Positions 14,301 to 37,868 are shown, counted from the first letter of the stretch. The stretch is DNA of 64,000 nt from an uncultured Gammaproteobacteria bacterium (GCA_964576435.1 CAZNUP010000002.1:42112-106111), one strand, 5' to 3'. A program made the numbers and translations. Notes: generated by a model not told the origin, from the letters alone.

Positions 14301-17300
14301 TTGGGAGATTTGACCACACGGGCAATTTGGGGATTGGTTACAGCTCAAGTCTTAATGGCAAATTAGTGGTTAACGGCAACGTCGGAATTGGAACTTCAAC
14401 AGCCAATGCGGCACTGGAAGTTGTTGGGACGACTGGCATGCTCCTTAAAGCCAACAGTTCATCAGCCGGCTTCACAATTAAAGATCGGGCATCGGTGCCA
14501 GGAGATCAGTTGATTTTTGAAGGGAATACAGGAAATTACACTGTCTTTAATGTTGGCACCAATGGGGCAACTTCCGGAAGTCCAAAGCAATCTGGTTTTG
14601 CTTTGTGGACAGTTGACCCTGATAGCACTGACGATGCAACTCAGTTCCAAGTGCAGTCTAATCCCACATATGGTGGTGTGGTGTTCACCCAAAAGTTTGG
14701 TTCGGGAGCACAAGGTGACTATCCAATTTCGTTGCAGTCAGTTTGGGATCAAGTCTCGACACCAAGTCAACTTGTGCTCGGAACTGGTGGCAATGTTGGG
14801 GTTGGCAGTTCAAGCCCAGGGAATAAGCTTGATGTCACTGGAACTTTGAGGGCGTCGGGCGTGACCACTTTGTCAAACTACACTACTAATAATGGACTGC
14901 TTTACACCAACGGTTCCGGGGTCATTGCTCAAACTGCCGCCGGCTCAACAGGGCAGTGTTTGGTGGGGGCAACAGGATCTGCACCTTCCTGGGCAGCGTG
15001 TGCAGCTGGATCTAGGTGGCAGTTAAACAGCGGAGTGCTTGCCCCAAATGATGTAACACAATCTTTGGCAATAGGGGGAACGGCAACGGGTTCAGCTCTG
15101 GCATATTTTGATGGAGTGAACGGAAATGCACTTCTTAGAGGTGGACTTTCAGTTGCATCATCTTCTGGAAAAGCAGCTCTCACAGTTAATCAGTCAAGCA
15201 CTGGGGATTTGTTCACAGCAAGTGCAGCAGGTGCATCGAGATTCGTGATTAATAATGCTGGCAACGTCGGAATTGGAACGAGCAACCCAACACAAAAATT
15301 AGTGGTTGGTGGTGCAACAAGTGAACTCGAGCTGTATTCGGATTCGGATTTGGGCACTATTGATTCACGAGCTTTGGGTGGGTCATCGTCAAGATGGCTC
15401 GTTATTAATCCAAGCGGTGGCAACGTCGGCATCGGAACGACGGGAGTTAGCAATTCTAAATTCTTGGTGTATGGCGATAGTGGGGCATCGGCGACAAATA
15501 GTTTGGCCATTTTTGGCGATAACCTTGGCATGAGCACCGATGTTAATCGAGCCAAAGTAACCATTGGCAACACTGATGGAATTTCTGAACTCCTATTAGG
15601 GCAAGACAGCACTCACGGGCTGCTGTTTAATTGGAACTATAACGCAACGGCTGGAAACGCGTATGGCGTTTTGGAAACATATGGTGGCAATAATCCGCTA
15701 GCTTTGCAAACAGCTGGTGGTAATGTTGGCATTGGCAGCATCACGCCGGGCTATAAACTCGATGTGAATGGCAACACCAATTCAACTGGGTATTATGTTG
15801 GTGGAGTGGCTGGAGCATCCGTCACAGGACAGTGTGTCACAACAACAAACGGAATTGTTACAGCCAGTGCAACATGTCCAGCAACTGGCGGATCAAAGTG
15901 GCAGCTTAATTCGGGAGTCCTTGCTCCAAATGATGTGACACAAAGTTTGGCAATTGGTGGAACAGCAACTTCAAGCGCACTCGTTTATTTTGACGGAGTC
16001 AATGGCAATGCACTTCTTCGAGGTGGTCTTTCAGTGGCATCATCATCTGGAAAAGCAGCTTTGACAGTTAATCAATCAAGTACTGGAGATATTTTCACAG
16101 CAAGTGCAGCAGGAGCTTCAAAGTTTGTTATTACTTCAGCTGGGAATGTTGGAGTAAATACTACAAACCCCGCAGCATTGTTGGAGATCCATAGCTCGAA
16201 TAATTATTCTAACAGTGGACTAGTATTGACTAATAATGTGGGAGTAGTTAGTGGAGGGTTATCCCTGGGTGGCAGTGGAGAAGTGATATTTAGTTCATCA
16301 AATCTAAATTATTTGTCTATTCAAGCAGGGGGTTTTGGAATTGCTAACAGTATTAATGATTCTTATAGCGGTTTGCTTCAAGTCCCAAATGGTTTGCAGG
16401 TTAATCCCGCTTCGGCTAGTTCTATCGGACTTTCTGTGTTTGGAGAAAGTGGACAAACAGCTAATTTGTCAAACTGGTATGACTCCTCCAGTAATTTGCT
16501 GTTTTCTGTTAATAATCGTGGGTATATTGCTAATGAAGGCAACATAACTGGGCTAAATAATATTCCTGGTTCATTGTCTGTGAATGACATTTTATCTGTG
16601 GCTGCAACATCCTCTGCTTATCCGGCATTTAGACTTAATGCTACAACGGGGCAAGCAGCGATGGTTATTAATCAAGATGATCCGGGTGGAGATTTGTTCA
16701 CTGCCTCGGCAGCTGGTTCACCAAAAGTGGTCATTAGTAATGTTGGGTTCTTGGGAGTTGGCACTACGACACCAGGTGGAATTGGACATTTTAGACAGGA
16801 TGCTAATGGTGGAGTTAGAGTTTATGTTGACAATGCAAGCAATGGTTCGTCGGCTTCAGTCGGGATCGCGCTTCGTGCAACACTCTTGACTGGTGATGGA
16901 ACATTTAACATCGCTAAATATGGATCAGGCTACAGTGATAACCCAAATTGGACAAATGCAGGAGTTATATCCGCCTGGAACGATGTAGCAGGAATAAGAA
17001 TAAGTTCATTTAATGGCCTGGCTTTTGAGACCGGAAATAATGCAGTGAGAGGTTCTTGGACTAATACTGGAAATTTGGGCATAAACACAACCGCACCTCT
17101 TTCTCTTTTTGATGTGCGCGGGGTGAACGGGACAAATGCATATTCTGGTATTTCCTCGGTGGCAACAATTTCTGGCCAAACTTCATTTGCAACTTTGGTT
17201 GTTGATAATTCTGGGGTGGGAGATTTGTTTACAGCTTCTTCCTCTGGCCTTACAAGATTTGTAATTAATCAGAACGGAAATATTGGTATTGGCACAACAT

Positions 17301-20300
17301 ATCCGACTGCAAAATTAGCTTTTGGAGCAGCAACGACGGCGGCGGGGGGAATTGATTTTGGAGGAGATGTGAGTTTGTATCGTTCAGCTGCCGATATATT
17401 AAAGACCGGAGATACATTTTCAATTAGATCTACGATTGGAATCACTGCAACTGGTCCAGCTCTTATTGTCGGCGGCGACGGATTGTCAGATGGTGTCGGA
17501 AATGTTGGCATTAACAAAGGAAGTATTGAGTATTACAGTAGTGGTTATGGACTTAACCTTGGTAGGCCGAATATTGGACCGATTGAATCTATAATTAGCC
17601 GTTCAACTGATGGTTCAACTGGTTACATTGATATCGGAAATAATACTGGTTGGACCGCAACAACACTGCAAGCTTCTGGTGGCAACGTTGGAATCGGCAC
17701 GACCGTGCCCATGGCAACACTGGATGTCCGAAGAAGCAATGGCACAATTGCGACGGCATCAATTTCCGGAGCAACGAGCTTTGCAGGCCTGGTTGTTGAT
17801 AATTCTGGGGTGGGAGATTTGTTTACAGCTTCTTCATCTGGCCTTACAAGATTTGTAATTAATAATGTTGGAGATGTGTTGCCTGGGACTGATGACGCTC
17901 AAGATCTGGGATCCAACGCACTCAGGTGGAGAGATTTGTATCTCGGATCAGACACGTTGCATATTGGCACGTCAACCTCAGATGAATATACGTTAAGCTA
18001 TAACACTGCATCAAACTATCTTGGGTTTAATGTCAATGGCAGTGGGAATTCGGAAGTGGTTTTTGATGCAAATGGGAATGTTGGAATTGGCAGCATCACA
18101 CCTGGATCAAAACTTGATGTTGCCGGAAGTATATCGATGTCTGGGTCACAAACGTTGACGTCAACAGGGACACTTGGAATTGGAACAGCCAATCAAACAG
18201 CCCTCACACTCGGTCGACCAGGAGCACCAACTGTGATTGATGGGTCGACGATCACAATTAATGGAGCACTTATTAATGGAGGAGGAAGTGCAACAATTTC
18301 AGGGACATTGGGGCTTGGTGGAGATGCTTCGTTCTCAGCAAAACTGACATTGGACTCAACAACACCTCAGATTAATGCAACAAACAACAGACCGCTGCAA
18401 CTTGGATTTATGAATACAGGGTCGGTTCAGTTTATGAATGCTTCTAATTACGTTGATGCAAACAACAATCTTTATATTAATGGTGTATTAATTTCTGGAT
18501 CCGCAGTCCAGGGTCATTGGCAGAGGAATAGTGGGGCTGTGGCACCAACTAATATCACTGACTCGCTGCTTGTTGGTGGGACGTCAACAGCGTCTGCTAA
18601 GTTCCAAGTTTATGGTTTGTCTGCATTGAATCCAGTGGCGTCAATTTCGGGTTCAAGTTCCAAGGCAGCACTTATTGTGGATAATACAGTCGGTGATTTA
18701 TTTGCTGCGAGTTCATCAGGATTGTCAAGGTTTGTCATTAATCAAAATGGCAACGTCGGAATTGGAACGACAAATCCCGCAGCACTTTTTGCAGCTGGGC
18801 AGTCGAATCAGTTTAGAGTTAATTCAGCTGGAACCGCATATATAACAAATGCAGCAGGGTCTATATCGTTAGCATCCTATATCGATGATGAGTGGGGAAC
18901 TTTTATTACGACTATTGGTGGAAGTGGGCAAAATTGGAAAATTTCTCCTAATCCAGGAAATAGAACAGCGATTGCATATAGAAATTTCCAGATCGCAGAT
19001 TCGTATAATCCATTCCAGTTTACTTTTAGAACAACGGTGGAGGATGGCAGCGGTGCAAATAACTTAACATTGTCAAGCTATTTCGAACCGTGGCAAACAA
19101 ATCGAGGTAATATGGCGGCATTATATGTTCCATACACTGTTGACGCAGCTGCCTCGCAAAATGGCATTGTTAGAGGGATTTATGTTGACTCAACTGAAAC
19201 CAGCCTGAACGGGTTTACAAATAATTTGATTGATCTACGCGTTGGTGGGGTGCCAAAGTTTGTTGTTGGAGCATCTGGCACTTCGACTACGGCCACGGTG
19301 TCTGGAACAACCAGTTCTGCAGCACTTGTGGTTGATAACTCGGGAGTTGGGGATGTGTTTAGTGCCAGCGCGGCTGGGGTGTCGAGGTTTGTTGTTACAA
19401 GTGGTGGAAATATTGGAATTGGCACCAACATCCCTGGATATAAACTGCAAGTTGCAAGTGGGCAAATTGCTGTTGCTGATGGGTCTGCTGGAACTCCTTC
19501 ATATAGTTTCTTTAATGATCCTGACAATGGCATGTTTAGACCTGGACCAAACACAATTGGCTTAAGTGCTGGGGGATCACAGGTTTTTTATGGAACGTTG
19601 GGGGGATCAGTGGTTTCAGGCTATATGGTTGGGGATGCAAGCCCGCTAACCCTTGGAAACAATAATGATTGGGGAGTGGGTGAGCAAATGCAGTTTGATT
19701 ATGCTGATGATAGCACTGTGGTTTCTCGAATTGGCTCGAATCAACATGCATCGGGAGATTATAGTTTGGATTTTTACACTACAACTGATGGTGGGTCAAG
19801 TTTGCCAGCGAGACTGCGAATTGGCCATGATGGAAACATTGGCATAAACACAACTGCACCTCTGTCACTATTGGATGTTCGAGGAATAAGTGGAACGAAT
19901 GCTTATTCAGGCATATCCTCGGTGGCAACAGTTTCTGGAAAAACATCGTTTGCAGCAATGGTTGTTGACAACTCAGGAGTAGGAGACCTGTTTACTGCCT
20001 CATCATCAGGCCTGTCTAGGTTTGTGATCTCACAAAATGGGAATATTGGGATTGGGACAACAGTTCCTGATGCTAAGGTTACAATTCTTGGAGGAAATGA
20101 CATTAAATTTACCGGAGTGTCTGCTCAAAATCAGGCATCGTTCATTGGTAGTAATGCCACGGATGATTTCAGTATTTTGGCTGGAATTGGGAACGGCAAG
20201 ACATTGACCATTGGAGCAAACGGCAGTTTGACTTCATTGAATAGAATAATTTTGTCGTCCACGGCGCTGCAAATTTTGCCTGGAAACACCAATGTTGGTA

Positions 20301-21763
20301 TTAACACTTCTGCGCCCGCCGCGGTTGTGGATATCAGAGGTTCTCAAGGATCAAACACCATGTCTGGAATAATTCCTGTGGCATCAATTTCAGGTCAAAC
20401 ATCGTTTGCAGCACTTGTTGTGAACAACAATTTCAGCACTGGAGATATTTTTACGGCATCAGCATCGGGACTTAATAGGTTTGTGATCAAAAATAATGGC
20501 TGGGTGGGGATTGGAACTGCGAACCCGTCAGCGACGTTGGATCTTGTCGGGAACGCAAGCATTTCTGGGCAGCTAGTTTTCCCTGGGTCAACAAACATAA
20601 ATGGAAGCTGGATTCGTGGAGATGGGGGAAATAGTCATTTGGAAATCGGAACTGGTACCATTCAAGATGCAAATGCCCGGCTTTATATTACTTCGGCTGG
20701 AAATATTGGCGTCAATACAACAAATCCAGGTCAGACATTTGATATAAATGGATCACTGAGGGTGAGAACATCGGTTGCTGGGACGGATACAAGGACACTT
20801 TGTGTGCCTGACACAACGGGAGTTGTTGAATTTGTGAACGGAGCTTGTGGAACTTCATCTCTTAGATATAAAGAAAATGTCAAAGATATTGGATATGGTT
20901 TGGATCAAATCAAGCAACTAAAACCAGTCTTCTTCAACTATATTCGAGATTCGGAGGTACCAAATGACTTGGATTTGAAAGACGATAGAACAAAGAGACG
21001 AATCGGTTTTATTGCTGAAGAAATGCAGCAAGTAGTTCCTGAGGTTGTTATTTGGCAAAATGGACAAATTGAGAGCATTGACTATTCCTACTTAACAGCT
21101 CTCTTAACCAAGGGTGTGCAAGACCTGGCAGGCGAGGTTGACGCTTTGAAGGTGGATGTGTCAAACATCGCTCCTGATATTTCCAATCAGTTGTCAGAGA
21201 TTCCGCAAATTAAAGCTGATTTGGCTCAAACTCAGTCAGAAATGGCATCGGTGTCAGCACAACTGGCTGATGTGTCGACAAGACAGGCTTCTGATTCAGC
21301 AAAACTCGCAGAACTTTTGGAGAAGGGGATGGCGACAAACTCTGGAAACATTAATGGAGCGACGGTTTCTGGAGACCTTAAAGTTCTCGGTATTACTGAG
21401 CTTGCTAAGACGGTTATTGGTGGCAAATTGTCAGTTGGACTTGTGATGATCGATGACATTAAAGCGGAGATTTCAAGTTTGACGGGACTTGTCAAAATTG
21501 ATGGCATCTTGTCGATCTTAAAGCTTCGAGTTGATACAGGTGATGTGGCAGCAGCTTCGGCCGGGAAAGCCACGATTTTGTCAGGCGAATCTGAAATTGA
21601 AATCACAACAACAGCGCTGACACCTGATTCGATGATCTTTGCTACACCAGAGGATGTGCCAGTGGCTGTGTCGACGACTAAGACTGGGGGAAATAAATTC
21701 AAGATTAAGCTTGCTAGCCCTGCAGTTTCAGATATTAAGATTAGTTGGTGGATTGTAAATTAG
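2369..21763 (+). CDS. Giant (6464-aa) membrane-anchored repetitive fibre-like protein with an N-terminal MerR-type HTH domain, one TM helix, tandem Gly/Ser/Thr-rich repeat modules and a C-terminal peptidase S74 (intramolecular chaperone auto-processing) domain
   Basis: A single uninterrupted ORF of 19.4 kb. The start is TTG at 2369; an alternative ATG is at 2450. The N-terminus LISASELIRLASERGFS...NRLRYYTKIGLIP...YTLDLLLKIQGLRKGGQDVSQVKEHM fits the MerR HTH pattern. A hydrophobic helix IWKYAIPVILLFLLLGGLVITA lies about 160 aa in. There are more than 15 copies of modules such as ...ALVVDNSGVGDLFTASSSGLTRFVINQNGNVGIGT..., CL(V/I)GNTGSAPSWSxC...WQRN and WQLNSGVLAPNDVTQSLAIGG.... The C-terminus has GTSSLRYKENV...LDQIKQLKPVFFNY...RIGFIAEEMQQVVPEVV...IDYSYLTALLTKGVQDL, which is the S74 ICA-domain signature. 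Confidence 0.85.
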   Translation: MNDKLISASELIRLASERGFSFGRGNPMNRLRYYTKIGLIPHAVRKQALPGQPYTVGYYPDYTLDLLLKIQGLRKGGQDVSQVKEHMKVEQVRAHVRSQLPTAQVGEGLNSDNLLHASEYLSNNTQSSRSISNDTVLETQNEITELGNDSEKKSEKKIWKYAIPVILLFLLLGGLVITASNSLWGKQSFFQIASLLNNSHKETVELAQSQGEVLAGFDVNKFLQFNSRVRFQNTFLNLSGDEVSIDQDLLTTSEPTFATLNLTAGTNQIVLGGNGTLAWPTITGNQTISFPDASGTVLLATSSAITINTSGNLSGGGSVSLGGSITLTGNSSGVTATTSAGYIPMMEANGQFGNSMLAQSGGNLYVNGTQGVTLPSVSCVITENGIVTGSATCPTLGVSGTPNSIVKFVTSNTVGDSSISDTGSAVTIANPLTITTGGITLTGSQAIDSSGGTLSIGTSGQTSLTLGRNAAPTIINGATITAGPLVLNTTTNVATFSGQVGVGGDLDVSGFYRANGVPGVSLATASCVITTNGIVTSSAACPGSGSGGSKWQLNSGVLAPNDVTQSLALGGISTGSAQVYFNAVSGDGTFAGALAAATLNTGQGANELYAMNQDVRTSDAPTFGGLTLSNLTTNNGLLYTNGSGVLAQTTAGTSGQCLVGNTGSAPSWSDCGTASGDDWQRNAGAISPLNVTDSLIIGGTATSSGKFQIYGVSSLNPVASISASSSKAAFIVDNTVGDLFTASSSGLSRFVIKQNGNIGIGTSNPGGAFQVVGGGTSFTLNSSGVLTSQFNVANDIVPTTDASRSLGNSSNGWFSLYTNQIHSTNSEDLSLNSSGTQIYVLDTLNFGSVSTDIITGTNEDLVITPGGTGNVGINTSTPQAKFQVFNSSNSQTASISAANGKSALLVDNTVGDLITASSSGISRFTVKQNGDVIINTLAASNAVTYVDSTGKLNGVTPNGSSIMCLTQATSGAPQWSDCNSGGGISGSGTLNYISKFTPDGSTLGNTGLYETSGALGYGTIAPLAKLDIQGGATTSAIASFSGATGKASLVVDNSVGDLFTASSSGMTRFVINQNGNVGIGTSNAANALDVKGNVTVRGNSTGTPGGSQGLLLGYSSTGNVGSITSIYSGNYFTTLSLVAAEITFNTGASGTEQMRLTQQATLGLGTTVPLGRLDVRGNSTIANSGTNSVATFSGATSKAVLVVDNSGVGDLITASSSGMSRFTVKQNGDVIINSLAAANAVTYVDSTGKLNGITPNGTGTALCLTQTSSGTPTWASCNSGGGISGSGTLNYISKFTPDGSTLGNSSIFDNGSVQIGGATPVALFNIGANSDVRINGTGDITARTFNGNTIATGSGNLTISGTANVDQDLRTVSSPTFAGLTLSSLTTNNGLLYTNGSGVIAQSAAGATGECLIGNTGSAPTWSSCSSAASDDWQRNSGVLSPTNITDSLIIGGTSTASGKFQVYGLSSLNPVASISGSSAVAALVVDNSAGDVFTASTSGLTRFVVNKNGNIGIGTSNPTRPFHVVDGSSVIYASNNIGTTLAYGTSSLDARNGFVTLGNNAGSITYNGTEFYPQVSNNVNIGRASLTYKNLYLNNLQVLNSGTTANASISGSTAFAGLVVDNSGVGDLITASSSGASRFTVKQNGDVVINSLAAANAVTYVDSTGKLNGITPNAGAIQCLTQTSSGTPVWAACSSGGGLSGSGTLNYISKFTPDGSTLGNTGLYETSNALGYGTIAPLAKLDIQGGATTSAIASFSGSTGTAALVVDNSVGDLFTASSSGLSRFVIKQNGTVGIGLSAPGNLQIGVDGAGAANNFTAYGTTSGGRIVMNGSGLSNPRGTNNLWLRASDLVISNGTITTVNSDLTLAPMSTYNTVITSGNVGIGSATPGTTLDITGTLRASGVTTLSNYTTNNGLLYTNGSGVVAQTAAGSTGECLIGNTGSAPSWSSCSSAASDDWQRNAGVLSPTNITDSLIIGGTATSSGKFQIYGVSSLNPVASISASSSQAALVIDNTVGDLFTASSSGLTRFVINQNGNVGIGTSNPSYKLDVVGTNMQFWNGGTGNGFNFTTAASGGDVTLTATGPTSAGDFIIKPVSTSGSDLILTSPNGITKVRGGDPLLNIEESNGTLRYAFSKNTATFDWADYPGVLTFDTNGISYAGAALNLGTSDSNLVALKTGGSERMRVDTNGNIGVGTTAPIGLLNVSNKATGKALTILNETGDQNILVGSASGTTEFVFDRTGGLTLTGLAGSANSLVYVDANGKLTNTAAGTSGQCLVGNTGAPASWSSCSGAAGGLFWQRNSGVLAPQNISESLAIGGTSTSSALAYFDGVNGNALLRGGLSVASSSGAAALTVNQSSTGDIFTASAAGVSKFVITAAGNVGIGTTVPGASLSINNSSGTSADIVQQGTSFYGLLRGNLIRGGTSSSIYGQIDLYNGSTGDLNIIPRGSNNFTVVTNSIERFRIDGNGNVGVGTTVPLATLNVKTVGNTQTASISGTSGTAALLVDNTVGDLFTASSSGASRFTVKQNGDVIINSLAAANAVTYVDSTGKLNGITPNGTGTALCLTQTSSGTPTWASCNSGGGISGSGTLNYISKFTPDGSTLGNSGLFDTGSALSYGTTNALATLDIRSQSGITGIASISGSTAHAALVVDNSGVGDIFTASSSGLTRFVIQQNGNVAIGGAVRLGQNGGANDVLNTAAAIGAPSGQLYWGSRYLCDSTNNCVGGGGGGAIGGGGVANYISKFTPDGNNIGNSQLYDTGSAIAIGTTSPLATIDVRSQSGITGIASISGSTAHAALVVDNSGVGDIFTASSAGLARFVIKNSGNIGIGTTTTTAKLTLLTSGVGDGFTAINSSTLGANSGAGIVGRTSSDPTGADQRLGFYVFGSNGSNAANSAGMLGYAGGAWSGSSKPAYLTFETTAVGSTSRAEQMRIDANGNVGISSSVPGAKLDVLTSAGSGQTALFSNYGTGVPLTLTNGSGSTSNVFSATRFGSQVFRVGGTGDYAMYASHTSATVPVGFIYNSDVSGTGLNILGANGATGKLLYVQSWGSTDLLTVKGNGDVIMNGGNIGIGSASPIGKLNVSGAATGKALTILNETGDQNILVGSASGVTEFVFDRSGGLTLTGLSGSANSLVYVDANGKLTNTAAGTSGQCLVGNTGSPASWSDCGTASGDDWQRNAGALSPKNISDSLIIGGTATSSGKFQVYGVSSLNPVASISASSSQAALVIDNTVGDLFTASSSGLTRFVIQQNGNVGIGYSNPSGAKLAINGGVGIGTTTASYALDVEGNIRSRSTGYIGTNAEDLGLYLGPDTSRFIFARSGGTLSIGAGSNDRITLLSGGNVGINSTTPGANFDVTGTARISGVTTLSNYTTNNGLLYTNGSGVIAQTAAGATGECLIGNTGSAPSWSSCSAAAGGLFWQRNSGVLAPQNISESLAIGGTSTSSALAYFDGVNGNALLRGGAYIASSSGKAALTVNQSSTGDLFTASAAGASRFVINNVGNVGVGTSNPTNKLYVAAGAIAAGSNGVLFSGDISGGNMYSAQLGVFNSGSANAPTRLQFGDLTAGEGTAVIESARTGSLTGYLAFQTRNTNYVEAMRINSDGNVGINTTLPVNKLDVSGSAAFGSYAGANSAPSNGLIVSGNVGVGTTTPGGILEVSGHLTGWNPFVLFEDTGDPGAGATTLEIKNSQSDLKIRAYGSTAPSYLANAVGLWSDANDMINGVGSGKKIYLASNDNYANPEVTIAAGNVGIGSVTPGFKFDVNGNTNSTAYYVGGVAGAASVSNSCVNVTNGIVTSAGTCALAGNQWQLNSGVIAPYDVTQSVAIGGTATSSALVYFNGVNGNALLRGGLSVASSSGAAALTVNQSSTGDIFTASAAGASKFVITAAGNVGIGSSAPGNKFVVNGGALVDGGSVGVIKGDNSTGSFTAHLNLLNNGTAGNVVRLGFGDETAGEGVAAIESARTGSQQGYLSFRTRNATMNEVGRFDHTGNLGIGYSSSLNGKLVVNGNVGIGTSTANAALEVVGTTGMLLKANSSSAGFTIKDRASVPGDQLIFEGNTGNYTVFNVGTNGATSGSPKQSGFALWTVDPDSTDDATQFQVQSNPTYGGVVFTQKFGSGAQGDYPISLQSVWDQVSTPSQLVLGTGGNVGVGSSSPGNKLDVTGTLRASGVTTLSNYTTNNGLLYTNGSGVIAQTAAGSTGQCLVGATGSAPSWAACAAGSRWQLNSGVLAPNDVTQSLAIGGTATGSALAYFDGVNGNALLRGGLSVASSSGKAALTVNQSSTGDLFTASAAGASRFVINNAGNVGIGTSNPTQKLVVGGATSELELYSDSDLGTIDSRALGGSSSRWLVINPSGGNVGIGTTGVSNSKFLVYGDSGASATNSLAIFGDNLGMSTDVNRAKVTIGNTDGISELLLGQDSTHGLLFNWNYNATAGNAYGVLETYGGNNPLALQTAGGNVGIGSITPGYKLDVNGNTNSTGYYVGGVAGASVTGQCVTTTNGIVTASATCPATGGSKWQLNSGVLAPNDVTQSLAIGGTATSSALVYFDGVNGNALLRGGLSVASSSGKAALTVNQSSTGDIFTASAAGASKFVITSAGNVGVNTTNPAALLEIHSSNNYSNSGLVLTNNVGVVSGGLSLGGSGEVIFSSSNLNYLSIQAGGFGIANSINDSYSGLLQVPNGLQVNPASASSIGLSVFGESGQTANLSNWYDSSSNLLFSVNNRGYIANEGNITGLNNIPGSLSVNDILSVAATSSAYPAFRLNATTGQAAMVINQDDPGGDLFTASAAGSPKVVISNVGFLGVGTTTPGGIGHFRQDANGGVRVYVDNASNGSSASVGIALRATLLTGDGTFNIAKYGSGYSDNPNWTNAGVISAWNDVAGIRISSFNGLAFETGNNAVRGSWTNTGNLGINTTAPLSLFDVRGVNGTNAYSGISSVATISGQTSFATLVVDNSGVGDLFTASSSGLTRFVINQNGNIGIGTTYPTAKLAFGAATTAAGGIDFGGDVSLYRSAADILKTGDTFSIRSTIGITATGPALIVGGDGLSDGVGNVGINKGSIEYYSSGYGLNLGRPNIGPIESIISRSTDGSTGYIDIGNNTGWTATTLQASGGNVGIGTTVPMATLDVRRSNGTIATASISGATSFAGLVVDNSGVGDLFTASSSGLTRFVINNVGDVLPGTDDAQDLGSNALRWRDLYLGSDTLHIGTSTSDEYTLSYNTASNYLGFNVNGSGNSEVVFDANGNVGIGSITPGSKLDVAGSISMSGSQTLTSTGTLGIGTANQTALTLGRPGAPTVIDGSTITINGALINGGGSATISGTLGLGGDASFSAKLTLDSTTPQINATNNRPLQLGFMNTGSVQFMNASNYVDANNNLYINGVLISGSAVQGHWQRNSGAVAPTNITDSLLVGGTSTASAKFQVYGLSALNPVASISGSSSKAALIVDNTVGDLFAASSSGLSRFVINQNGNVGIGTTNPAALFAAGQSNQFRVNSAGTAYITNAAGSISLASYIDDEWGTFITTIGGSGQNWKISPNPGNRTAIAYRNFQIADSYNPFQFTFRTTVEDGSGANNLTLSSYFEPWQTNRGNMAALYVPYTVDAAASQNGIVRGIYVDSTETSLNGFTNNLIDLRVGGVPKFVVGASGTSTTATVSGTTSSAALVVDNSGVGDVFSASAAGVSRFVVTSGGNIGIGTNIPGYKLQVASGQIAVADGSAGTPSYSFFNDPDNGMFRPGPNTIGLSAGGSQVFYGTLGGSVVSGYMVGDASPLTLGNNNDWGVGEQMQFDYADDSTVVSRIGSNQHASGDYSLDFYTTTDGGSSLPARLRIGHDGNIGINTTAPLSLLDVRGISGTNAYSGISSVATVSGKTSFAAMVVDNSGVGDLFTASSSGLSRFVISQNGNIGIGTTVPDAKVTILGGNDIKFTGVSAQNQASFIGSNATDDFSILAGIGNGKTLTIGANGSLTSLNRIILSSTALQILPGNTNVGINTSAPAAVVDIRGSQGSNTMSGIIPVASISGQTSFAALVVNNNFSTGDIFTASASGLNRFVIKNNGWVGIGTANPSATLDLVGNASISGQLVFPGSTNINGSWIRGDGGNSHLEIGTGTIQDANARLYITSAGNIGVNTTNPGQTFDINGSLRVRTSVAGTDTRTLCVPDTTGVVEFVNGACGTSSLRYKENVKDIGYGLDQIKQLKPVFFNYIRDSEVPNDLDLKDDRTKRRIGFIAEEMQQVVPEVVIWQNGQIESIDYSYLTALLTKGVQDLAGEVDALKVDVSNIAPDISNQLSEIPQIKADLAQTQSEMASVSAQLADVSTRQASDSAKLAELLEKGMATNSGNINGATVSGDLKVLGITELAKTVIGGKLSVGLVMIDDIKAEISSLTGLVKIDGILSILKLRVDTGDVAAASAGKATILSGESEIEITTTALTPDSMIFATPEDVPVAVSTTKTGGNKFKIKLASPAVSDIKISWWIVN
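5981..6300 (+). repeat. Intragenic DNA repeat unit of about 320 bp inside the giant ORF; a copy at about 92% identity lies at 9899-10218 and diverged copies near 5100 and 7200
   Basis: Direct comparison of the 5981-6300 and 9899-10218 segments shows long identical runs, for example ggtgatgtgatcattaactctcttgcagcagcaaacgc. Confidence 0.8.
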
Positions 21764-21995: not shown

Positions 21996-23750
21996 TTAGA
22001 ACTCGATGATGAGAGGAACTTCTGATATAGGCACCGTTGTTAGACCATCTTTTGTTTCTGCTTGATATTGTTTTCCAGATATTTCAGTTAGTGTAACCGG
22101 CCCTCTAAATTGCAAAACAGACTGTTTTTCGGGTGCGTTTTTATCACGTTTATTAGTCCAGACAATCTCTTTTCTTTTTTGGTTGGGTGCAATAAAAATA
22201 TAACCTTCTATGTATTCAGGATCTGAGGTTTCTATTGATAAGAACTTAGATCCACCAAAGATTTTCTGCATGGTTTTGAAGACGTTGTAGACTGGCAATT
22301 TTTCACCAGTGTTTTCTTTTATGAGGCCGCAATATTCTGAGGTTGCACCGGGTCTTCCGAAAAGAGTGAAATAATTTATGTCCCTAACTGAGTCTTTAGA
22401 GGCTACTTGGGCGAGGGTTTTTGCAACTCGAGTTGGCTGTTCATTCATGGTTGTTGGCCCTGCGCAGTACCCAATTTCACTAAAGACAATAGGTTTGACT
22501 CCGCCATACTGACGCATCAAATCTTCTGTCCATTTTATTTTCCCCCTAACACTTCCACCAGAATAGGGGTCGTTTTGAATCCACACGGGCATTGTTTTTT
22601 GGTCGTCATAATAGTGGATATCCATATAATCGAAGAATGGTTGATTGGCAGACGCTTGCATAACTCTTGTTAAGAAATCAAGTGACTTTGGGCCATAGAG
22701 AGCAAATCTAGATGTCCCCAATTTTACTTCAGGGTTTGTGGTTTTTAGCTTGTCATAGACGATCCTCATCATGGTCACATAGTCAGTGCTATCGATTTGT
22801 TTGTTATTATTTAAATCTTCGTCTGTCCAATAGATGGGGGAGCCACATGCTGGTTTGGCTCCTGGTTTCCTTGTATTTTGTTGATAGTCAATTTCATTAA
22901 AAAGGGTAACATATGCTGCTTTTGGGGCTCCGTTTTTACCGTTATAACGGTTGGCAATTAGATTTACAAAATTTGCTAAGTTGCTGTATTGACTAGGGTC
23001 AATTGGATAAGGGTAATCGTTGTTACAAGTTAGGGGAATTTTTGAAAGTCCTCCTTTAACGGCATAATCTGGAACCCCGCCAATAAAGATCCCGCAGTCG
23101 AGATTTTTATCTCTACATTCAGCCATGTTAGCATCTAAATATCTTCCGACATTGGCAATTATTTGTGAGTCTGACATTTTTTCTTGAGGTTGGGCGGCTG
23201 ACCAGTAAATACCTGGTTGCATAGATTTGACTCCTAGATCGGCTCTTTCAGTTGGTCCTTGCCCACTTCCTAAACCTCCGATACCATAGTTTGTTGGATA
23301 GTTAAATTCTTCTGGGACTGTTAAAGTCTTGACGTTGTAGTAGTTTCTTTCACTGGTTGGATTTTTGGGGTCGGAAATTTGGTTGGCGGTAATTTTAACT
23401 CTTTGACCAACTAATGGCTCAAAGAATTTAGAAGGATCAGTTGGTAGGGTGTATTGCTTTTTTACTCCTTCACTTGGCTTTATCCAAAAATTTTGCCCTT
23501 CTTGGTTGTAGAGTTTGTAACAATAGTTGTAACCGTTAGCTTCATTGCATTTATTGATGCTGCCGCCTGGTTGGATTATGCCGTAAATTTCTATATTTTT
23601 ATTGGGGTTAAGTTCTGCAATTGCTAGAGCTTGTCCTGATATCTGTTTTGAGGACTCTATGAAGAGGATTATAAGCAGGGGAATGGTGACAGATATGATG
23701 AGCGCTAAAAGAAGGGTGATTCTGACTGATCCAATATTTTGTTTTTTCAC
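21996..23750 (-). CDS. Membrane-anchored putative glycoside hydrolase (GH-A clan (beta/alpha)8-like)
   Basis: It has an N-terminal TM anchor. There is an NE motif (VTLFNEID) and a second Glu motif (IVFSEIGY) in the positions expected for the clan GH-A acid/base and nucleophile. The family cannot be assigned. Confidence 0.4.
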   Translation of the reverse strand: MKKQNIGSVRITLLLALIISVTIPLLIILFIESSKQISGQALAIAELNPNKNIEIYGIIQPGGSINKCNEANGYNYCYKLYNQEGQNFWIKPSEGVKKQYTLPTDPSKFFEPLVGQRVKITANQISDPKNPTSERNYYNVKTLTVPEEFNYPTNYGIGGLGSGQGPTERADLGVKSMQPGIYWSAAQPQEKMSDSQIIANVGRYLDANMAECRDKNLDCGIFIGGVPDYAVKGGLSKIPLTCNNDYPYPIDPSQYSNLANFVNLIANRYNGKNGAPKAAYVTLFNEIDYQQNTRKPGAKPACGSPIYWTDEDLNNNKQIDSTDYVTMMRIVYDKLKTTNPEVKLGTSRFALYGPKSLDFLTRVMQASANQPFFDYMDIHYYDDQKTMPVWIQNDPYSGGSVRGKIKWTEDLMRQYGGVKPIVFSEIGYCAGPTTMNEQPTRVAKTLAQVASKDSVRDINYFTLFGRPGATSEYCGLIKENTGEKLPVYNVFKTMQKIFGGSKFLSIETSDPEYIEGYIFIAPNQKRKEIVWTNKRDKNAPEKQSVLQFRGPVTLTEISGKQYQAETKDGLTTVPISEVPLIIEF

Positions 23751-23832
23751 GAATATGTTTTTATCTTAAAGTATTAGATATAAAATTGATATCTATCACT
23801 TTTACACTGTACTAGTAGTTAATATCATTTTA

Positions 23833-23861
23833 TTGCTCTTTGTCAATCCTGACTGTATAAT
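23833..23861 (+). promoter_or_regulatory. Sigma70-type promoter with an extended -10 (TTGCTC N17 TGTATAAT) upstream of the leuS leader
   Basis: TGTATAAT lies at 23854-23861, with TTGCTC 17 nt upstream. Confidence 0.45.
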
Positions 23862-24017
23862 AGTTTATATAAGTTATGATCCCGACTATCTCACCGGGGG
23901 AATTTATCGAAAAGCTTGCGAAAGTAGCTTAGAAATTAAGAAGCAAACAAGGTGGTACCACGGAAGTTTCCGTCCTTGTATACTAAATATTAGTAGTATA
24001 TAGAGGGCGGCTTTTTT
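23862..24017 (+). promoter_or_regulatory. T-box-like leader RNA for leuS (candidate Leu CUC specifier, T-box motif, terminator/sequestrator helix and U-run)
   Basis: AACAAGGUGGUACCACGG at 23946-23963 matches the T-box consensus AGGGUGGNACCGCGG (UGGU would pair with the ACCA end of tRNA-Leu). A long hairpin CCGUCC...GGGCGG at 23970-24010 is followed by UUUUUU directly before the ATG. A candidate specifier CUC-A is at 23890-23893 in a hairpin loop. AGAGGG inside the 3' arm may be a sequestered SD. Confidence 0.5.
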
Positions 24018-26375
24018 ATGGACAAGAAATATAATCCAGCAGAAATTGAGCCTAAATGGCAGGAAGTCTGGGAGAGGGAAAAGCTTTACCAAACCCCAGA
24101 TAGACCTGAAAAGAAAAAATATGTTCTTGATATGTTTCCTTATCCATCAGGGGCAGGACTCCACGTGGGACATATTGAAGGATACACAGGGACTGATATC
24201 ATCTCCAGGTTTTTACGTATGAACGGGCATGGAGTTTTACATCCCATGGGGTGGGATGCGTTTGGGCTGCCTGCTGAAAACTATGCTATTAAGAAGGGAA
24301 TCGAGCCAAATAAGTCGACTCATGACAATATAGCTAACTTTAAGGAGCAAATTAATAGAGCTGGTTTATCTTATGATTGGGACCGGGAAATAGATTCAAG
24401 TAGCCCTAACTACTATAAATATACACAGTGGATCTTTATTCAGCTATTTAAGAATGGTTTAGCTTATAAAAAGAAGGCGCCGGCTAATTGGTGCCCTAAA
24501 GACGAAACTGTGCTTGCCAACGAACAGGTGATTGATGGGAAGTGTGAGAGATGTGGAAGTGAAGTTATTCAGAAAGATTTGGAACAGTGGTTTTTTAAGA
24601 TAACTGACTATGCTGATAGGTTAATAGATGGTTTGATGTATATCGACTGGCCTAAATCAACCAAAATGCAGCAGGAAAACTGGATTGGAAGAAAAGAAGG
24701 GGCAAATATAAAGTTTGGAGATATTAGTGTTTTTACAACTAGACCAGATACAATTTTTGGAGCGACGGCTTTGGTGCTTGCGCCTGAGCATGAAGTGTCT
24801 AAAAAGTTAGCATTGGAGAATAAAAAAGTTTCTGATTATATTTCTTCAGTTAAAAACGAGACACAAATTCAGAGGGAATCGTTGAATAAGGAGAAGACTG
24901 GAATTGATACCGGACTTAAAGTCGTCAATCCGGCAAATGGGGAGGAGATTGCTGTTTGGATTTCTGACTATGTTTTATCTGGAACTGGAACTGGAGCTAT
25001 TATGGCGGTTCCATATCTTGATGAACGAGATAGACAGTTTGCTTTGAAGTTTAATTTGCCAATTAAAGAAATTGAAGTTGACCCTTCGATATTTGGGAAA
25101 CTAGTTGAAAAGGGAGTAGCTTCAAAGCAAGTGAATTATCATCTTAGAGATTGGTTAGTTTCAAGACAAAGGTATTGGGGGGCACCTATTCCAATGATTG
25201 TTTGCGAAAAATGTGGGTGGCAGCCAGTTCCCGAGGAAAATTTACCGGTACTTTTGCCAACAGATGTTGATTTTCAGCCACACGGGGAGTCACCAATTGC
25301 AAGATCAGAGAGCTTTCAAAAAGATGTGGTTTGCCCAAAATGTGGAGGTAGTGCCAAACGAGAAGTAGACACAATGGATACCTTTGTTGATTCCTCGTGG
25401 TATTTTTGGGCATTTACGTTTGCAAATAAAGAACTGATGAGAGATTCTAAATTGGAGAAAAAAGGTGCTGAGAATGTATTTAGTGAGTTTAGAGAAGAAA
25501 TTAAAACTTGGACTCCTGTGGACTTTTATGTAGGTGGAGCTGAGCATACGGTTTTGCATCTTATGTACTCGAGATTCTTCTGGAAAGCATTTATGGATTT
25601 TGGTTTTTTTGATAAATCCTTAGGTGAAGAACCGTTTTTGAAGCTTAGACATCCTGGAACAGTTCTTGGGGAAGATTCACGCAAGATGTCTAAGAGGTGG
25701 GGAAATGTAATTAACCCAACAGATGTAGCTAATCAATATGGGGCTGACACTTTAAGGGTTTATGAGATGTTCATGGGACCATTTGATGCCACTAAACCTT
25801 GGAATACCAAAAGTGTTGCCGGGGTTCACAGGTTTTTGACAAAGATTTTTAAGCTTTTTAATGAAAGCGATATGGAAGTTCCCGCGACTGAAGAGTCAAA
25901 TAGAGCCTTGAATAAGCTTATTTCTAAAGTAACCGCTGATATTTCAGAACTTCACTTTAATACGTGTGTTTCTTCGATGATGGAATTTATGAATTTTGTC
26001 CAAGAAGAGAAAAATATTGGAAAAGATGTCTGGATGAAGTTTTTACTTGTTCTGGCGCCTTTTGCACCATATTTGACTGAAGAACTATATCAAACAATGT
26101 CTGAAAAAAGTCGAGGCAAAAACGAAAAATTTGAGTCAATTCATAAGCAGTCATGGCCTGTGATTGATAACAAATATTTAGTTGATTCTAAAGCCAAAGT
26201 AGCTGTTTCAATAAACGGCAAAACCAGGGGAGTTTTGGAAATTGAGGGCGGAATATCTCAAGAGAAAATTGTTGAAAAGGCAAAGTTAGACGAAAAGATA
26301 TGTAAATATTTGGATAATACCGAAATTAAGAAAGTGGTGTATGTCCCTGGGAAGATTTTGAATTTCGTGGTTTAG
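24018..26375 (+). CDS. leuS: Leucine--tRNA ligase
   Basis: A 785-aa protein with a HIGH motif (PYPSGAGLHVGH), KMSKS (KMSKRWGN) and LeuRS-specific editing/insertion domains. Confidence 0.92.
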   Translation: MDKKYNPAEIEPKWQEVWEREKLYQTPDRPEKKKYVLDMFPYPSGAGLHVGHIEGYTGTDIISRFLRMNGHGVLHPMGWDAFGLPAENYAIKKGIEPNKSTHDNIANFKEQINRAGLSYDWDREIDSSSPNYYKYTQWIFIQLFKNGLAYKKKAPANWCPKDETVLANEQVIDGKCERCGSEVIQKDLEQWFFKITDYADRLIDGLMYIDWPKSTKMQQENWIGRKEGANIKFGDISVFTTRPDTIFGATALVLAPEHEVSKKLALENKKVSDYISSVKNETQIQRESLNKEKTGIDTGLKVVNPANGEEIAVWISDYVLSGTGTGAIMAVPYLDERDRQFALKFNLPIKEIEVDPSIFGKLVEKGVASKQVNYHLRDWLVSRQRYWGAPIPMIVCEKCGWQPVPEENLPVLLPTDVDFQPHGESPIARSESFQKDVVCPKCGGSAKREVDTMDTFVDSSWYFWAFTFANKELMRDSKLEKKGAENVFSEFREEIKTWTPVDFYVGGAEHTVLHLMYSRFFWKAFMDFGFFDKSLGEEPFLKLRHPGTVLGEDSRKMSKRWGNVINPTDVANQYGADTLRVYEMFMGPFDATKPWNTKSVAGVHRFLTKIFKLFNESDMEVPATEESNRALNKLISKVTADISELHFNTCVSSMMEFMNFVQEEKNIGKDVWMKFLLVLAPFAPYLTEELYQTMSEKSRGKNEKFESIHKQSWPVIDNKYLVDSKAKVAVSINGKTRGVLEIEGGISQEKIVEKAKLDEKICKYLDNTEIKKVVYVPGKILNFVV

Positions 26376-33100: not shown

Positions 33101-33312
33101 CTTTGTGTTAAAATAAATTAGGTTAATTTCGCTGTGAGGTGTTAGAAACACTGAGCGAGTGGGAAGAAAGTAGAAATACAAGTACCACCAGGAAGAGAGA
33201 CTTCCAGAGATAAAAATAAGTGTGGCACCGTGGTTACTTTACACCACCACTTTATAAGATTATCCTTGATGTAGGATAACTTAATAAGTTGGTGGTTTTT
33301 TATTTTTAATTT
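33101..33312 (+). promoter_or_regulatory. Promoter (extended -10 TGTGTTAAAAT) plus T-box-like leader for argS, ending in a terminator hairpin and U-run
   Basis: AAAUAAGUGUGGCACCGUGG at 33214-33233 resembles the T-box motif. A hairpin CCACCACUU...AAGUUGGUGG at 33244-33295 is followed by UUUUUUAUUUUU immediately before the ATG. A GGAAG-AGAGA-CUUCC hairpin at 33191-33205 sits upstream. Confidence 0.4.
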
Positions 33313-35148
33313 ATGGAAAAAACGAATTCAAAAGTGAATATTTCTTATCACTTGAAAGAATTGATTGCTAAGGCTGTTTTGGAAAGCTTTGACAATCTAA
33401 ATTTAACAGCTGAGGCTGTTTCTATTGAACATCCTACGGTAGAAGACTATGGAGATTATTCGTCAAATGTGGCGTTGGTACTTTCCAAACAAATAGGAGG
33501 GAATCCGAGGAAAATAGCAGAGAAAATTGTTGCTGCTTTGGAACAGAATAGATCAGATAGTGCATCAAACAACATCATAGAAAAAATTTCGATCGCTGGG
33601 GCTGGATTTATCAACTTTGAGCTCAAAGAGGAGTTTTTGAAAAATCAGATAAAACAAATCAGTGAGCTTGGAGAAAAATTTGGGAACGGGGATTGGGGAG
33701 AAGGACAAAAAATCGCAATTGAAATTGTTAGTCCCAATATTAATAAACCGTTGCACATTGGCCACCTTAGGAATGCGGCACTTGGTATGAGTCTTTCAGA
33801 GCTTTACAAGGCTTCAGGTTGGCAAGTTGTTCGTGATGAAATTAATAATGATCGTGGACTTCATATTATGAAGGCTGCTTACGGATATTTAATTTTTGGA
33901 AGGAAAGAGAAGAGTAGTGAATATTCTTGGAAGAAGCTTCTTGACAATTGGATTTCAGATACAAGTTCTAATAAAAACTATTCTATACCAGGTCTGGAAA
34001 AAGGAGATGAATTTGTAGGTAAATTTTATGTTCTTGGAGAGAAGTTTTTAGAGGAAAACAAGGATATTGCTGAACCACAACTTACTAGCATGCTTCAAGC
34101 ATGGGAGGACGAAGACAAAGATGTTTGGGCTTTGTGGGAGACAATGAGTGAGTGGGTGCATTCTGGAATTGATCAGACATATAAAAGGATTGGCGTCTTA
34201 CATGACAAAAAATGGTATGAACATGAGCTTTATAAGGAAGGTAGAGATTATGTGTTGGAAGCAGTTAAGGAAGGAAAATTTGAAAAGTTGTCAGATGGTG
34301 CTATTCAGGCAAATTTAGAGTCTTATAAACTTCCAAATAAAATACTCATTAGAAACGATGGCACATCTATTTATGTGACTTTTGATATAGCTTTAACAAA
34401 ACACAAAGTAGAGGAATTTAAAGCTGACAAGTATGTTTGGGTTGTGGGATCAGATCAGGTAGACCATTTTAAAAGATTGTTTGCGATTTTTGAGATCTTG
34501 GGTTTTGGGAAAGTTGATAACTTTTACCATCTAGCTTATGGAATGGTCAGAATGCCTGGAGGAAAGATGAGCAGTAGACTTGGGAATGTAATTTTGGCTG
34601 ACGATCTTATTGACAAAATGGTCGAATCGGCAGGGAAATTGATGATGGATAGAAAGATTGGAATGGATTACTCTGATGAAGAAAAAGCAAAAATTAAAGA
34701 AGCGGTTGGAGTTGGGGCACTCAAATATGCAATGCTTAAGGTGAGTCCACTTTTAGATATAACTTTTGATTTAGACAAGTCAGTATCTCTGGAAGGAGAT
34801 TCAGGACCATATTTGCAATACACTTACGCAAGGGCTAAATCAGTTGTTCGAAAAGCAAGCGAAACAAATAATTCCGGGGACAAATTAGAAGATTCTTTAT
34901 CTCCAGAAGAACGGGCTCTTCTTAGGTGGATTTATAGATTCCCAGAAGTTGTAGAGCTTGCAAGCAAGAATTATGCACCAAACCTAATTGCTACATATTT
35001 ATTTGATTTAGCTAAGAGATTTAATAATTTTTATAATAATCAACAGATTGTAGGGAGCAAATCTAGATTAGACCTTACCAAGGCTACATCGGTCGTTTTA
35101 AAGAATGGTCTTACTTTGTTGGGGATTGAAGCTTTGGAAAGAATGTGA
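33313..35148 (+). CDS. argS: Arginine--tRNA ligase
   Basis: A 611-aa protein with HIGH (NINKPLHIGHLRNAALG), the ArgRS N-terminal Arg_tRNA_synt_N-like domain and a DALR-type anticodon-binding C-terminus. Confidence 0.9.
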   Translation: MEKTNSKVNISYHLKELIAKAVLESFDNLNLTAEAVSIEHPTVEDYGDYSSNVALVLSKQIGGNPRKIAEKIVAALEQNRSDSASNNIIEKISIAGAGFINFELKEEFLKNQIKQISELGEKFGNGDWGEGQKIAIEIVSPNINKPLHIGHLRNAALGMSLSELYKASGWQVVRDEINNDRGLHIMKAAYGYLIFGRKEKSSEYSWKKLLDNWISDTSSNKNYSIPGLEKGDEFVGKFYVLGEKFLEENKDIAEPQLTSMLQAWEDEDKDVWALWETMSEWVHSGIDQTYKRIGVLHDKKWYEHELYKEGRDYVLEAVKEGKFEKLSDGAIQANLESYKLPNKILIRNDGTSIYVTFDIALTKHKVEEFKADKYVWVVGSDQVDHFKRLFAIFEILGFGKVDNFYHLAYGMVRMPGGKMSSRLGNVILADDLIDKMVESAGKLMMDRKIGMDYSDEEKAKIKEAVGVGALKYAMLKVSPLLDITFDLDKSVSLEGDSGPYLQYTYARAKSVVRKASETNNSGDKLEDSLSPEERALLRWIYRFPEVVELASKNYAPNLIATYLFDLAKRFNNFYNNQQIVGSKSRLDLTKATSVVLKNGLTLLGIEALERM

Positions 35149-37664: not shown

Positions 37665-37671
37665 GTTTTTG

Positions 37672-37743
37672 TCGGGGTGCAGGGAATTGAACCCTGTGTC
37701 TCACGGTCCCGAACCGTGCGTGTTACCGATGCACCACACCCCG
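37672..37743 (-). tRNA. tRNA-Pro (anticodon CGG)
   Basis: Manual cloverleaf: acceptor CGGGGUG/CACCCCG with C1-G72 and A73 (typical of bacterial tRNA-Pro), anticodon arm CACGG-UUCGGGA-CCGUG, T-arm CAGGG-UUCAAUU-CCCUG. No encoded CCA. Confidence 0.7.
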
Positions 37744-37792
37744 AATAATTTTTTCCATTTTACTGTATTTACTGATAAAATTGGAATGTTTA

Positions 37793-37864
37793 GCCCTCGT
37801 AGCTCAACGGATAGAGCAATCCCGTCCTAAGGGAAAGATAACAGTTCAATTCTGTTCGAGGGTA
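37793..37864 (+). tRNA. tRNA-Arg (anticodon CCU)
   Basis: Manual cloverleaf: acceptor GCCCUCG/CGAGGGU, D-arm GCUC-AACGGAUA-GAGC, anticodon loop GUCCUAA, T-arm AACAG-UUCAAUU-CUGUU, discriminator A. Confidence 0.7.
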
Positions 37865-37868
37865 CTTA

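Follow-up and report, generated by a model that had tools for sequence, protein, structure and literature searches.

The window, the whole stretch of 64,000 nt that was analysed, contains leuS at 24018-26375 (+), identified by protein comparison and domain search as encoding a leucyl-tRNA synthetase (LeuRS) of 785 amino acids and regarded here as the regulated gene. The genes comEA and comEC lie on its 3' side, an order that is kept in relatives. The gene on the 5' side (21996-23750) is on the opposite strand, and the intergenic region comprises 267 nt. Since this gene is divergent, the intergenic region belongs to leuS and the hairpin found in the leader is not the terminator of another gene. 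Domain searches revealed leuS and argS as the only aminoacyl-tRNA synthetase genes within the window. The codons CUC and CUU together account for 40% of the Leu codons of the window. A tRNA search found no tRNA-Leu gene in the window or in the fetched loci and, thus, the anticodon and the A73 of tRNA-Leu referred to below are predicted.

One NCBI record and Logan assemblies contain an identical copy of the LeuRS, and no other relative exceeds 60% identity. Relatives with a source name were assigned to Patescibacteria, Microgenomates, Woesebacteria and similar groups; judged from sequence, the host of the window is an ultrasmall bacterium of the CPR/Patescibacteria. The sequence of the leuS leader was invariant across three independent assemblies (L161-L163). 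Two further features of the window are an ORF of 6464 amino acids with a TTG start (2369-21763, +), which occupies nearly one third of the window, and an ORF of 1329 amino acids (47947-51936, -) that gave no Pfam match and is located where the GC skew of the window peaks (0.40), with a GC content of 0.46 versus approximately 0.39 in the flanks.

Anatomy of the leuS leader

The leader extends from approximately 23868 to 24017, with about 150 nt between the predicted transcript start and the AUG, in agreement with the unusually short length remarked on in the initial annotation. The extended -10 promoter-like box reported there, TGTATAAT, is present at 23854-23861 (+); the promoter is a prediction from sequence, and the predicted transcript start is at about 23867-23869, at the base of Stem I. 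An alternative promoter-like pair, TTTACA-16-TATCAT, is located at 23801-23828. Boxes of the TGnTAnAAT type like that of the leuS leader are found 5' of many genes in the window.

Folding, alignment to the Rfam model and comparison of three leaders revealed an ultrashort Stem I (23870-23906, +). The C helix of 5 bp (23870-74 with 23902-06) leads into a canonical K-turn with the bulge UAU (23875-77) and tandem G.A/A.G pairs (G78.A01 and A79.G00; 23875-79 with 23900-01), followed by an NC helix of 5 bp (23880-84 with 23895-99) and an apical loop of 10 nt, ACUAUCUCAC (23885-94), the hairpin spanning 23880-23899. The CUC-A previously noticed in a hairpin loop lies on the 3' side of this apical loop (23890-23893, +) and comprises the Leu specifier codon CUC (23890-23892), complementary to the anticodon GAG, and the conserved 3' purine A23893. 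The next element, recovered in the minimum free energy (MFE) structure, is a hairpin of 7 bp, AAGCUUGC-GAAA-GUAGCUU (23912-23930, +), that in alignment A3 sits opposite the distal Stem II of the leaders of two relatives, L164 and L165. It is a reduced Stem II: the GNRA cap is retained, Watson-Crick pairs take the place of the S-turn internal loop, and there is no basal helix. A purine-rich linker, AAUUAAGAAGCA (also given as AAUUAAGAAGCAAA; 23934-23945, +), is near-identical in L164 and includes AGAAG, a match to RRRxG, the motif normally found beside Stem III as defined in PMC7583486. The Stem III flank purines AGAAG and AAA are present at 23939-47. The only candidate for Stem III itself is a helix of 4 bp (GCUU 23927-30 with AAGC 23941-44) that competes with the 23912-23930 hairpin and received low Rfam posteriors; a true Stem III is probably absent or marginal (4 bp at most).

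The strong match to the T-box sequence listed in the initial annotation, AACAAGGUGGUACCACGG, is found at 23946-23963 (+), where AAGGUGGUACCACG (23949-62) agrees with 12 of the 14 positions of the conserved 14-nt AGGGUGGNACCGCG; a G-to-A change in the A1 strand is compensated on the 3' strand. This sequence forms the 5' part of an antiterminator (23947-23979, +) with a constrained folding energy of -10.2 to -11.2 kcal/mol, computed with the 3' arm of the terminator blocked. The antiterminator consists of helix A1 (6 bp, 23947-52 with 23974-79), a 7-nt bulge, UGGUACC (23953-59), and helix A2 (5 bp, 23960-64 with 23969-73) with the loop AGUU. The basal pair of A2, A23960-U23973, is A-U and not the usual G.U in all three leuS leaders compared, which is not disqualifying because the corresponding ACCACG variant also occurs in canonical T-boxes with Rfam scores of 103-122 bits.

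An intrinsic terminator (23970-24017, +) was predicted with an energy of -19.1 to -22.2 kcal/mol and was recovered in the RNAalifold consensus of three leaders. It comprises the 5' arm CCGUCCUUGUAUACUA (23970-85), a loop (23986-93), the 3' arm UAGUAUAUAGAGGGCGG (23994-24010), C24011 and a U6 tract (24012-17) directly before the AUG at 24018, consistent with the earlier description of a long hairpin followed by U6 that reaches the start codon. The 5' arm reuses the 3' strands of A2 and A1 (23970-79, about 9 nt) and, via this segment, the antiterminator (-10 to -11 kcal/mol) and the terminator (-19 to -22 kcal/mol) are mutually exclusive. The 3' arm contains the SD-like sequence GAGGG (24003-24007, +), 10 nt 5' of the AUG. 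The MFE of the whole leader is ordinary (z = -1.3). A simple terminator scanner reported nothing at the leuS leader, probably the result of a single bulged G (G24003) that breaks the stem.

A permissive scan with the Rfam T-box model (RF00230) aligned 23867-23980 end to end with a score of 35.5 bits and an E value of 1.9e-6 for a region of 401 nt. When the whole window was searched on both strands with all 4227 families, the E value was 3e-4 and the leader was the sole non-tRNA match. The score does not reach the RF00230 gathering score of 93, and a default Rfam scan of the window returned two tRNAs only and missed the leader. K-turn, proximal helix of Stem I and discriminator are retained in the alignment. 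Of the distal Stem I, 72 consensus positions are deleted and 6 nt are left, and Stem II shrinks from 27 to 4 nt and IIA from 13 to 2 nt; the deletion of these Stem I, Stem II and IIA positions explains the shortfall from 93 bits. Thus, the leader contains the conserved T-box sequence, the 7-nt UGGN+ACC bulge, an exclusive terminator, a K-turn and a specifier that matches the gene. It is devoid of the platform of the distal Stem I (IDTM, made up of the AG bulge and the distal loop), with Stem I ending in the 10-nt loop, and of both the S-turn of Stem II and the IIA/B pseudoknot.

Homologous leaders and a second compact T-box

The leuS loci of relatives were retrieved by twelve contig look-ups for the closest LeuRS proteins. 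T-box leaders were found only for P0003 (L164) and P0002/P0005 (L165/L168), which represent two further lineages of the CPR. The leader of L164, whose LeuRS is 57% identical, is directly 5' of leuS, scores 39.9 bits with Rfam and presents the loop UUAUCUCA, the core GGGUGGUACCACG and a terminator with U7 followed by the AUG. L165 and L168 are the same in sequence (LeuRS 55% identical) and have the leader, with the loop AGCUAAACUCG and an Rfam score of 49.2 bits, 5' of a ridA-leuS pair. In both loci (L165:880-1500) the RidA-family gene (PF01042, 129 amino acids) ends 4 nt before leuS.

In the window leader and L164 (CUC-A) and in L165 (CUC-G), the apical loop carries the specifier CUC and a following purine on its 3' side, the specifier loop UAUCUCA of the window is the same as that of L164, and UGGU is present in all three leuS leaders. 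Local alignments between leaders scored 43-83 versus 17+/-2.5 for shuffled sequences, with the LeuRS proteins only 55-57% identical, and the 3' half was the best-conserved part between the window and L165 (score 83). All proposed helices form in each of the three leaders, with compensatory changes in Stem I, A1 and A2. In a MAFFT alignment of these three independent leaders (the window leader showing no variation among its assemblies), 93% of the cells were paired and seven pairs had changed on both sides, a result reached by 2 of 500 shuffles and compared with 0-2 such pairs in slid controls. RNAalifold applied to the three leaders independently recovered Stem I, the IIA hairpin and the terminator. 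The Stem II S-turn halves and a IIA-type hairpin are kept in L164, L165 and the argS leader described below, and a proper Stem III is missing in both the window leuS leader and L164. In alignment A3 the window leader has a 23-nt gap that corresponds to the 3' base of Stem II, IIA and an F-box-like segment. From these comparisons, the window copy is a reduced derivative of the design of the clade in which the tRNA-contacting elements are kept.

These results, namely the Rfam alignment, the mutually exclusive folds, the CUC specifier with its purine, the UGGU bulge and the homologous leaders, uphold the principal claim of the initial annotation that a compact Leu T-box precedes leuS, and the leader is a real, stripped-down T-box riboswitch.

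A LeuRS search of genome and metagenome contigs gave 160 loci, none with a T-box core 5' of leuS; the best of these was only about 45% identical over the full length and many were from Actinobacteria or Clostridia. A pattern scan of viral contigs gave 21 loci, four of which aligned over the full length to the compact model (15.5-27.9 bits). The four were rejected as compact T-boxes since Rfam scores of 103-122 bits identified them as canonical T-boxes with a long Stem I, and they served as positive controls for Rfam.

Among the twelve look-ups, no leader was found 5' of leuS in L166, L167 and L174, and elements other than a T-box were found in L169-L173 and L175. L169:1370-1478 and L175:798-900 have no T-box and contain short Leu-rich ORFs (MKQTNLVLPLDLLLDEDV and MNGRVLLLALLQSSQ) that start 7-8 nt after a TAAGAT box and are followed by strong terminators of similar sequence. 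In the predicted folds a G-rich segment immediately 3' of the stop codon is paired with the Leu codons, and with the codons masked this segment pairs with the 5' arm of the terminator, which is the classical 1:2 / 2:3 / 3:4 logic of a leader-peptide attenuator. L169 shares colinear UUAA(U)GAAGCAAACAA and AAAUUCGUCCC with the T-box leaders, and its attenuator may be T-box-derived, a derivation that is not claimed here given the marginal score of 23-25 versus 17+/-2.3 for shuffles. A common motif, UAAUUGGCR...GUGCUAGGAAA, without a T-box was present 5' of leuS in L170:~1340-1400, L171:~1210-1260 and L172:~1230-1290, and Rfam gave no match for this motif at E<=5.

A covariance model (R1) built from the three leuS leaders matched 33114-33256 with 23.7 bits, 5' of argS (33313-35148), which was identified by its Pfam catalytic, DALR and Arg N-terminal domains. 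The compact T-box at this site (33106-33312, +) scored 22.2 bits with the Rfam T-box model (E 0.0036 locally) and was not detected in the window-wide Rfam scan. It consists of an extended -10 box (33106-14, +); a Stem I with a canonical K-turn, a 5-bp helix and the apical loop UUAGAAA (33129-58, +) that contains the specifier AGA (33144-46, +) followed by A; a Stem II with the S-turn halves GAA/AGUA and a GAAA cap (33159-88, +); a IIA-like hairpin (33191-205, +); A1, the bulge UGGCACC and A2 (33218-52, +); and a terminator of -23 kcal/mol followed by U6 (33244-95, +). Between the end of the terminator stem and the AUG are 17 nt, which contain no SD-like motif. AGA is the major Arg codon of the window (52%). 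When the argS leader was added to the covariation analysis, 92% of the cells were paired and 18 pairs had changed on both sides, a result reached by none of 500 shuffles and compared with 1-3 in slid controls, in a four-leader alignment fitted to the model, which misplaces Stem I of argS as an insertion.

The window contains a divergent tRNA pair (37671-37865), tRNA-Pro(CGG) and tRNA-Arg(CCU). The latter has A73 and does not match the argS T-box, either at the specifier AGA or at the bulge UGGC. Judged from its sequence, this T-box would be expected to read a tRNA-Arg(UCU) that has G73 and is encoded elsewhere. Sequences resembling a -10 box are located inside the 5' arms of both terminators of the window, TGTATACT (23977-84) in the leuS leader, with an identical string in L165, and TAAGAT (33255-33260) in the argS leader. 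If active, these boxes would give rise to transcripts without the 5' arm that escape termination; they could equally be chance occurrences in AT-rich stems.

Mode of regulation

The leuS leader is very probably a T-box that responds to tRNA-Leu mainly by transcription attenuation. In the proposed mechanism, transcription would begin just 3' of the TGTATAAT box and the nascent RNA would form the ultrashort Stem I with its K-turn, displaying CUC and the adjacent A in the apical loop. Uncharged tRNA-Leu(GAG) would pair through its anticodon with CUC and through its 3'-ACCA end (A73) with UGGU of the bulge. A73 is the discriminator base of bacterial tRNA-Leu, and the UGGU sequence predicts a tRNA with A73. 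This pairing would stabilise the A1/A2 antiterminator and RNA polymerase would read into leuS. Charged tRNA would be unable to stabilise the antiterminator, such that the terminator, stronger by about 10 kcal/mol, would form and transcription would end in the U6 tract right before the AUG. The binding of tRNA, the response to charging and termination in vivo are thus put forward for the leuS leader as predicted steps. Since leuS is essential and there is no room for a promoter 3' of the terminator, antitermination must work.

The initial annotation had suggested that the hairpin may sequester the SD sequence. GAGGG (24003-24007) is indeed within the 3' arm, but sequestration as the main mode is doubtful, since an SD-like core (GGAG, GAGG or AGGA within 25 nt upstream) precedes only 4 of the 37 long ORFs of the window, leuS among them. 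A mainly translational T-box, in which the hairpin sequesters the SD or start site as in actinobacterial ileS and the U-run is incidental, is therefore unlikely. Such a mode would be in accord with the position of GAGGG, 10 nt before the AUG, with GGAGGG 8 nt before the AUG in L164, and with a hairpin base only 7 nt from the AUG that would occlude the 30S binding site; it is in translational T-boxes that an ultrashort Stem I has otherwise been described (PMC7583486; 10.1101/2023.02.28.530422). However, a GC-based stem passes directly into U6-U7 in all four compact leaders, and the leuS hairpin with its U6 is a textbook intrinsic terminator. The GAGGG sequence is moreover forced by complementarity to the conserved 3' strand of the T-box, CCGUCCUU. 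In L165 about 33 nt separate the same arm, GAGGGCGG, from the downstream AUG, with the end of the terminator stem about 30 nt from the AUG of ridA, and in argS the distance is the 17 nt given above; in these two leaders the distance between terminator and AUG is too great for an SD to be hidden. At many starts of the window an extended -10-like box (TGnTAAAAT, TAGAAT or TATAAT, of the TGnTAnAAT type) ends 5-8 nt before the ATG, for instance at 40821, 39604(-), 31901, 35413, 52013(-), 30987, 30352(-) and 56296(-), an arrangement pointing to frequent leaderless mRNAs in this CPR genome. Attenuation of transcription as the main mode does not preclude a second layer of control: with GAGGG inside a hairpin that directly adjoins the start codon, refolding of the hairpin on full-length mRNA could also block initiation, plausibly as a secondary effect.

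Quite improbable is a decaying relic that no longer binds tRNA usefully after loss of the S-turn and IIA/B and acts as a fixed, leaky attenuator, with leuS expressed by read-through or from the internal -10-like box TGTATACT (23977-84). The 23-nt gap relative to L164/L165 does remove elements reported as essential with a short Stem I (PMC7583486), a shortened Stem II abolished binding (PMC11297988), and relatives have replaced or lost the T-box (L166, L167, L169-L175). The argS leader of the same genome keeps the S-turn, indicating that the need for it is not gone lineage-wide. Against decay, the parts that contact the tRNA are intact and conserved, including the K-turn, the UAUCUCA loop shared with L164, a perfect UGGUACC and A1/A2; the 3' half is the part best conserved with L165 despite a LeuRS identity of 55%; and for an essential gene a terminator of -20 kcal/mol right before its AUG would carry a high cost unless it can be relieved. 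The last alternative, a chance resemblance or a small coding ORF in place of an RNA element (a program-made call of a 56-amino-acid TTG ORF covers 23833-24003, and the Rfam score is below the gathering threshold), is effectively refuted by the window-wide E value of 3e-4 and the covariation of homologous leaders, and the coding ORF was rejected on finding stops in all frames in L164 and L165.

Relation to described T-boxes and significance

T-boxes are textbook regulators of Gram-positive bacteria. Structures of the ultrashort (US) ileS T-boxes are those of M. tuberculosis and N. farcinica ileS, and ultrashort translational ileS T-boxes of Actinobacteria were reportedly described by Sherwood et al. 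in 2015. A specifier in the apical loop of an ultrashort Stem I characterises the translational class, found mostly in Actinobacteria (PMC7583486), and every US T-box is stated to control ileS in response to tRNA-Ile (10.1101/2023.02.28.530422). The window leader resembles this class in the K-turn, in a strongly shortened Stem I whose terminal loop holds the specifier and a 3' purine, in the missing elbow platform and in a discriminator core with a UGGN bulge between A1 and A2; L164, L165 and the argS leader resemble it further in the Stem II S-turn halves and the IIA-type hairpin. It differs from the US ileS class in that the specifiers are CUC for leuS and AGA for argS, the host belongs to the Patescibacteria and not the Actinobacteria, the expression platform is a hairpin with U6-7 forming an intrinsic terminator and not a pure SD sequestrator, and the window leuS copy is without the S-turn and the IIA/B pseudoknot.

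With canonical RF00230 T-boxes such as those of Bacillus leuS and tyrS, the leader shares the regulatory logic, the T-box sequence, the competition between antiterminator and terminator, the K-turn, CUC as the Leu specifier and the position 5' of an aminoacyl-tRNA synthetase gene. Unlike these, it lacks the AG bulge, the distal loop and the specifier-loop S-turn, approximately 72 consensus positions of Stem I in all, and its sensing part is about 110 nt versus a consensus of 219 positions, with a score of 35.5 bits versus 103-122 bits for the controls. The glyQS-type T-boxes, naturally without Stem II and IIA/B, are similar to the leuS leader in that Stem I and the discriminator are not separated by a functional Stem II domain and in a relatively strong codon-anticodon pair (CUC:GAG, with two G-C pairs); they possess, however, a long Stem I with an elbow platform and a proper Stem III, both of which are missing from the window leader.

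Transcriptional T-boxes generally need the IDTM and the distal Stem I, and a truncated Stem I was reported to make the S-turn and IIA/B pseudoknot indispensable to tRNA binding (PMC7583486). The biochemistry of actinobacterial ileS predicts barely any tRNA binding for a combination as reduced as that of the leuS leader. That the leader is nonetheless a working minimal T-box, with a sensing part of about 110 nt that dispenses with the elbow platform, the S-turn purines, IIA/B and nearly all of Stem III, and that the CPR carry a transcriptional ultrashort class serving several aminoacyl-tRNA synthetases (leuS, argS), is advanced tentatively, and we lean somewhat against it. If true, compensation would be needed, for example by docking of the GAAA-capped hairpin on the codon-anticodon helix, by the stronger CUC:GAG pairing or by contact with the long variable arm of tRNA-Leu.

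The ultrashort Stem I with terminators serving leuS and argS is a variant that goes beyond the described ileS class, and the miniature T-boxes reported here are a small, previously undescribed set missed by standard annotation. With scores of 22-49 bits and a threshold of 93, the compact leaders will go unreported in annotation based on Rfam. A literature search found no paper linking T-boxes to CPR/Patescibacteria, and gene regulation in the CPR has been described as virtually unknown (PMC11665869). The CPR leaders break two published generalisations, that ultrashort T-boxes serve ileS only and that transcriptional T-boxes require a long, elbow-binding Stem I. The leuS copy represents a natural deletion experiment on the Stem II domain, and its length of about 110 nt makes it attractive as a minimal scaffold, both in structural work and in the engineering of tRNA-responsive switches. 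Finally, the relatives that have swapped the T-box for Leu leader-peptide attenuators at leuS offer a rare view of regulatory turnover.
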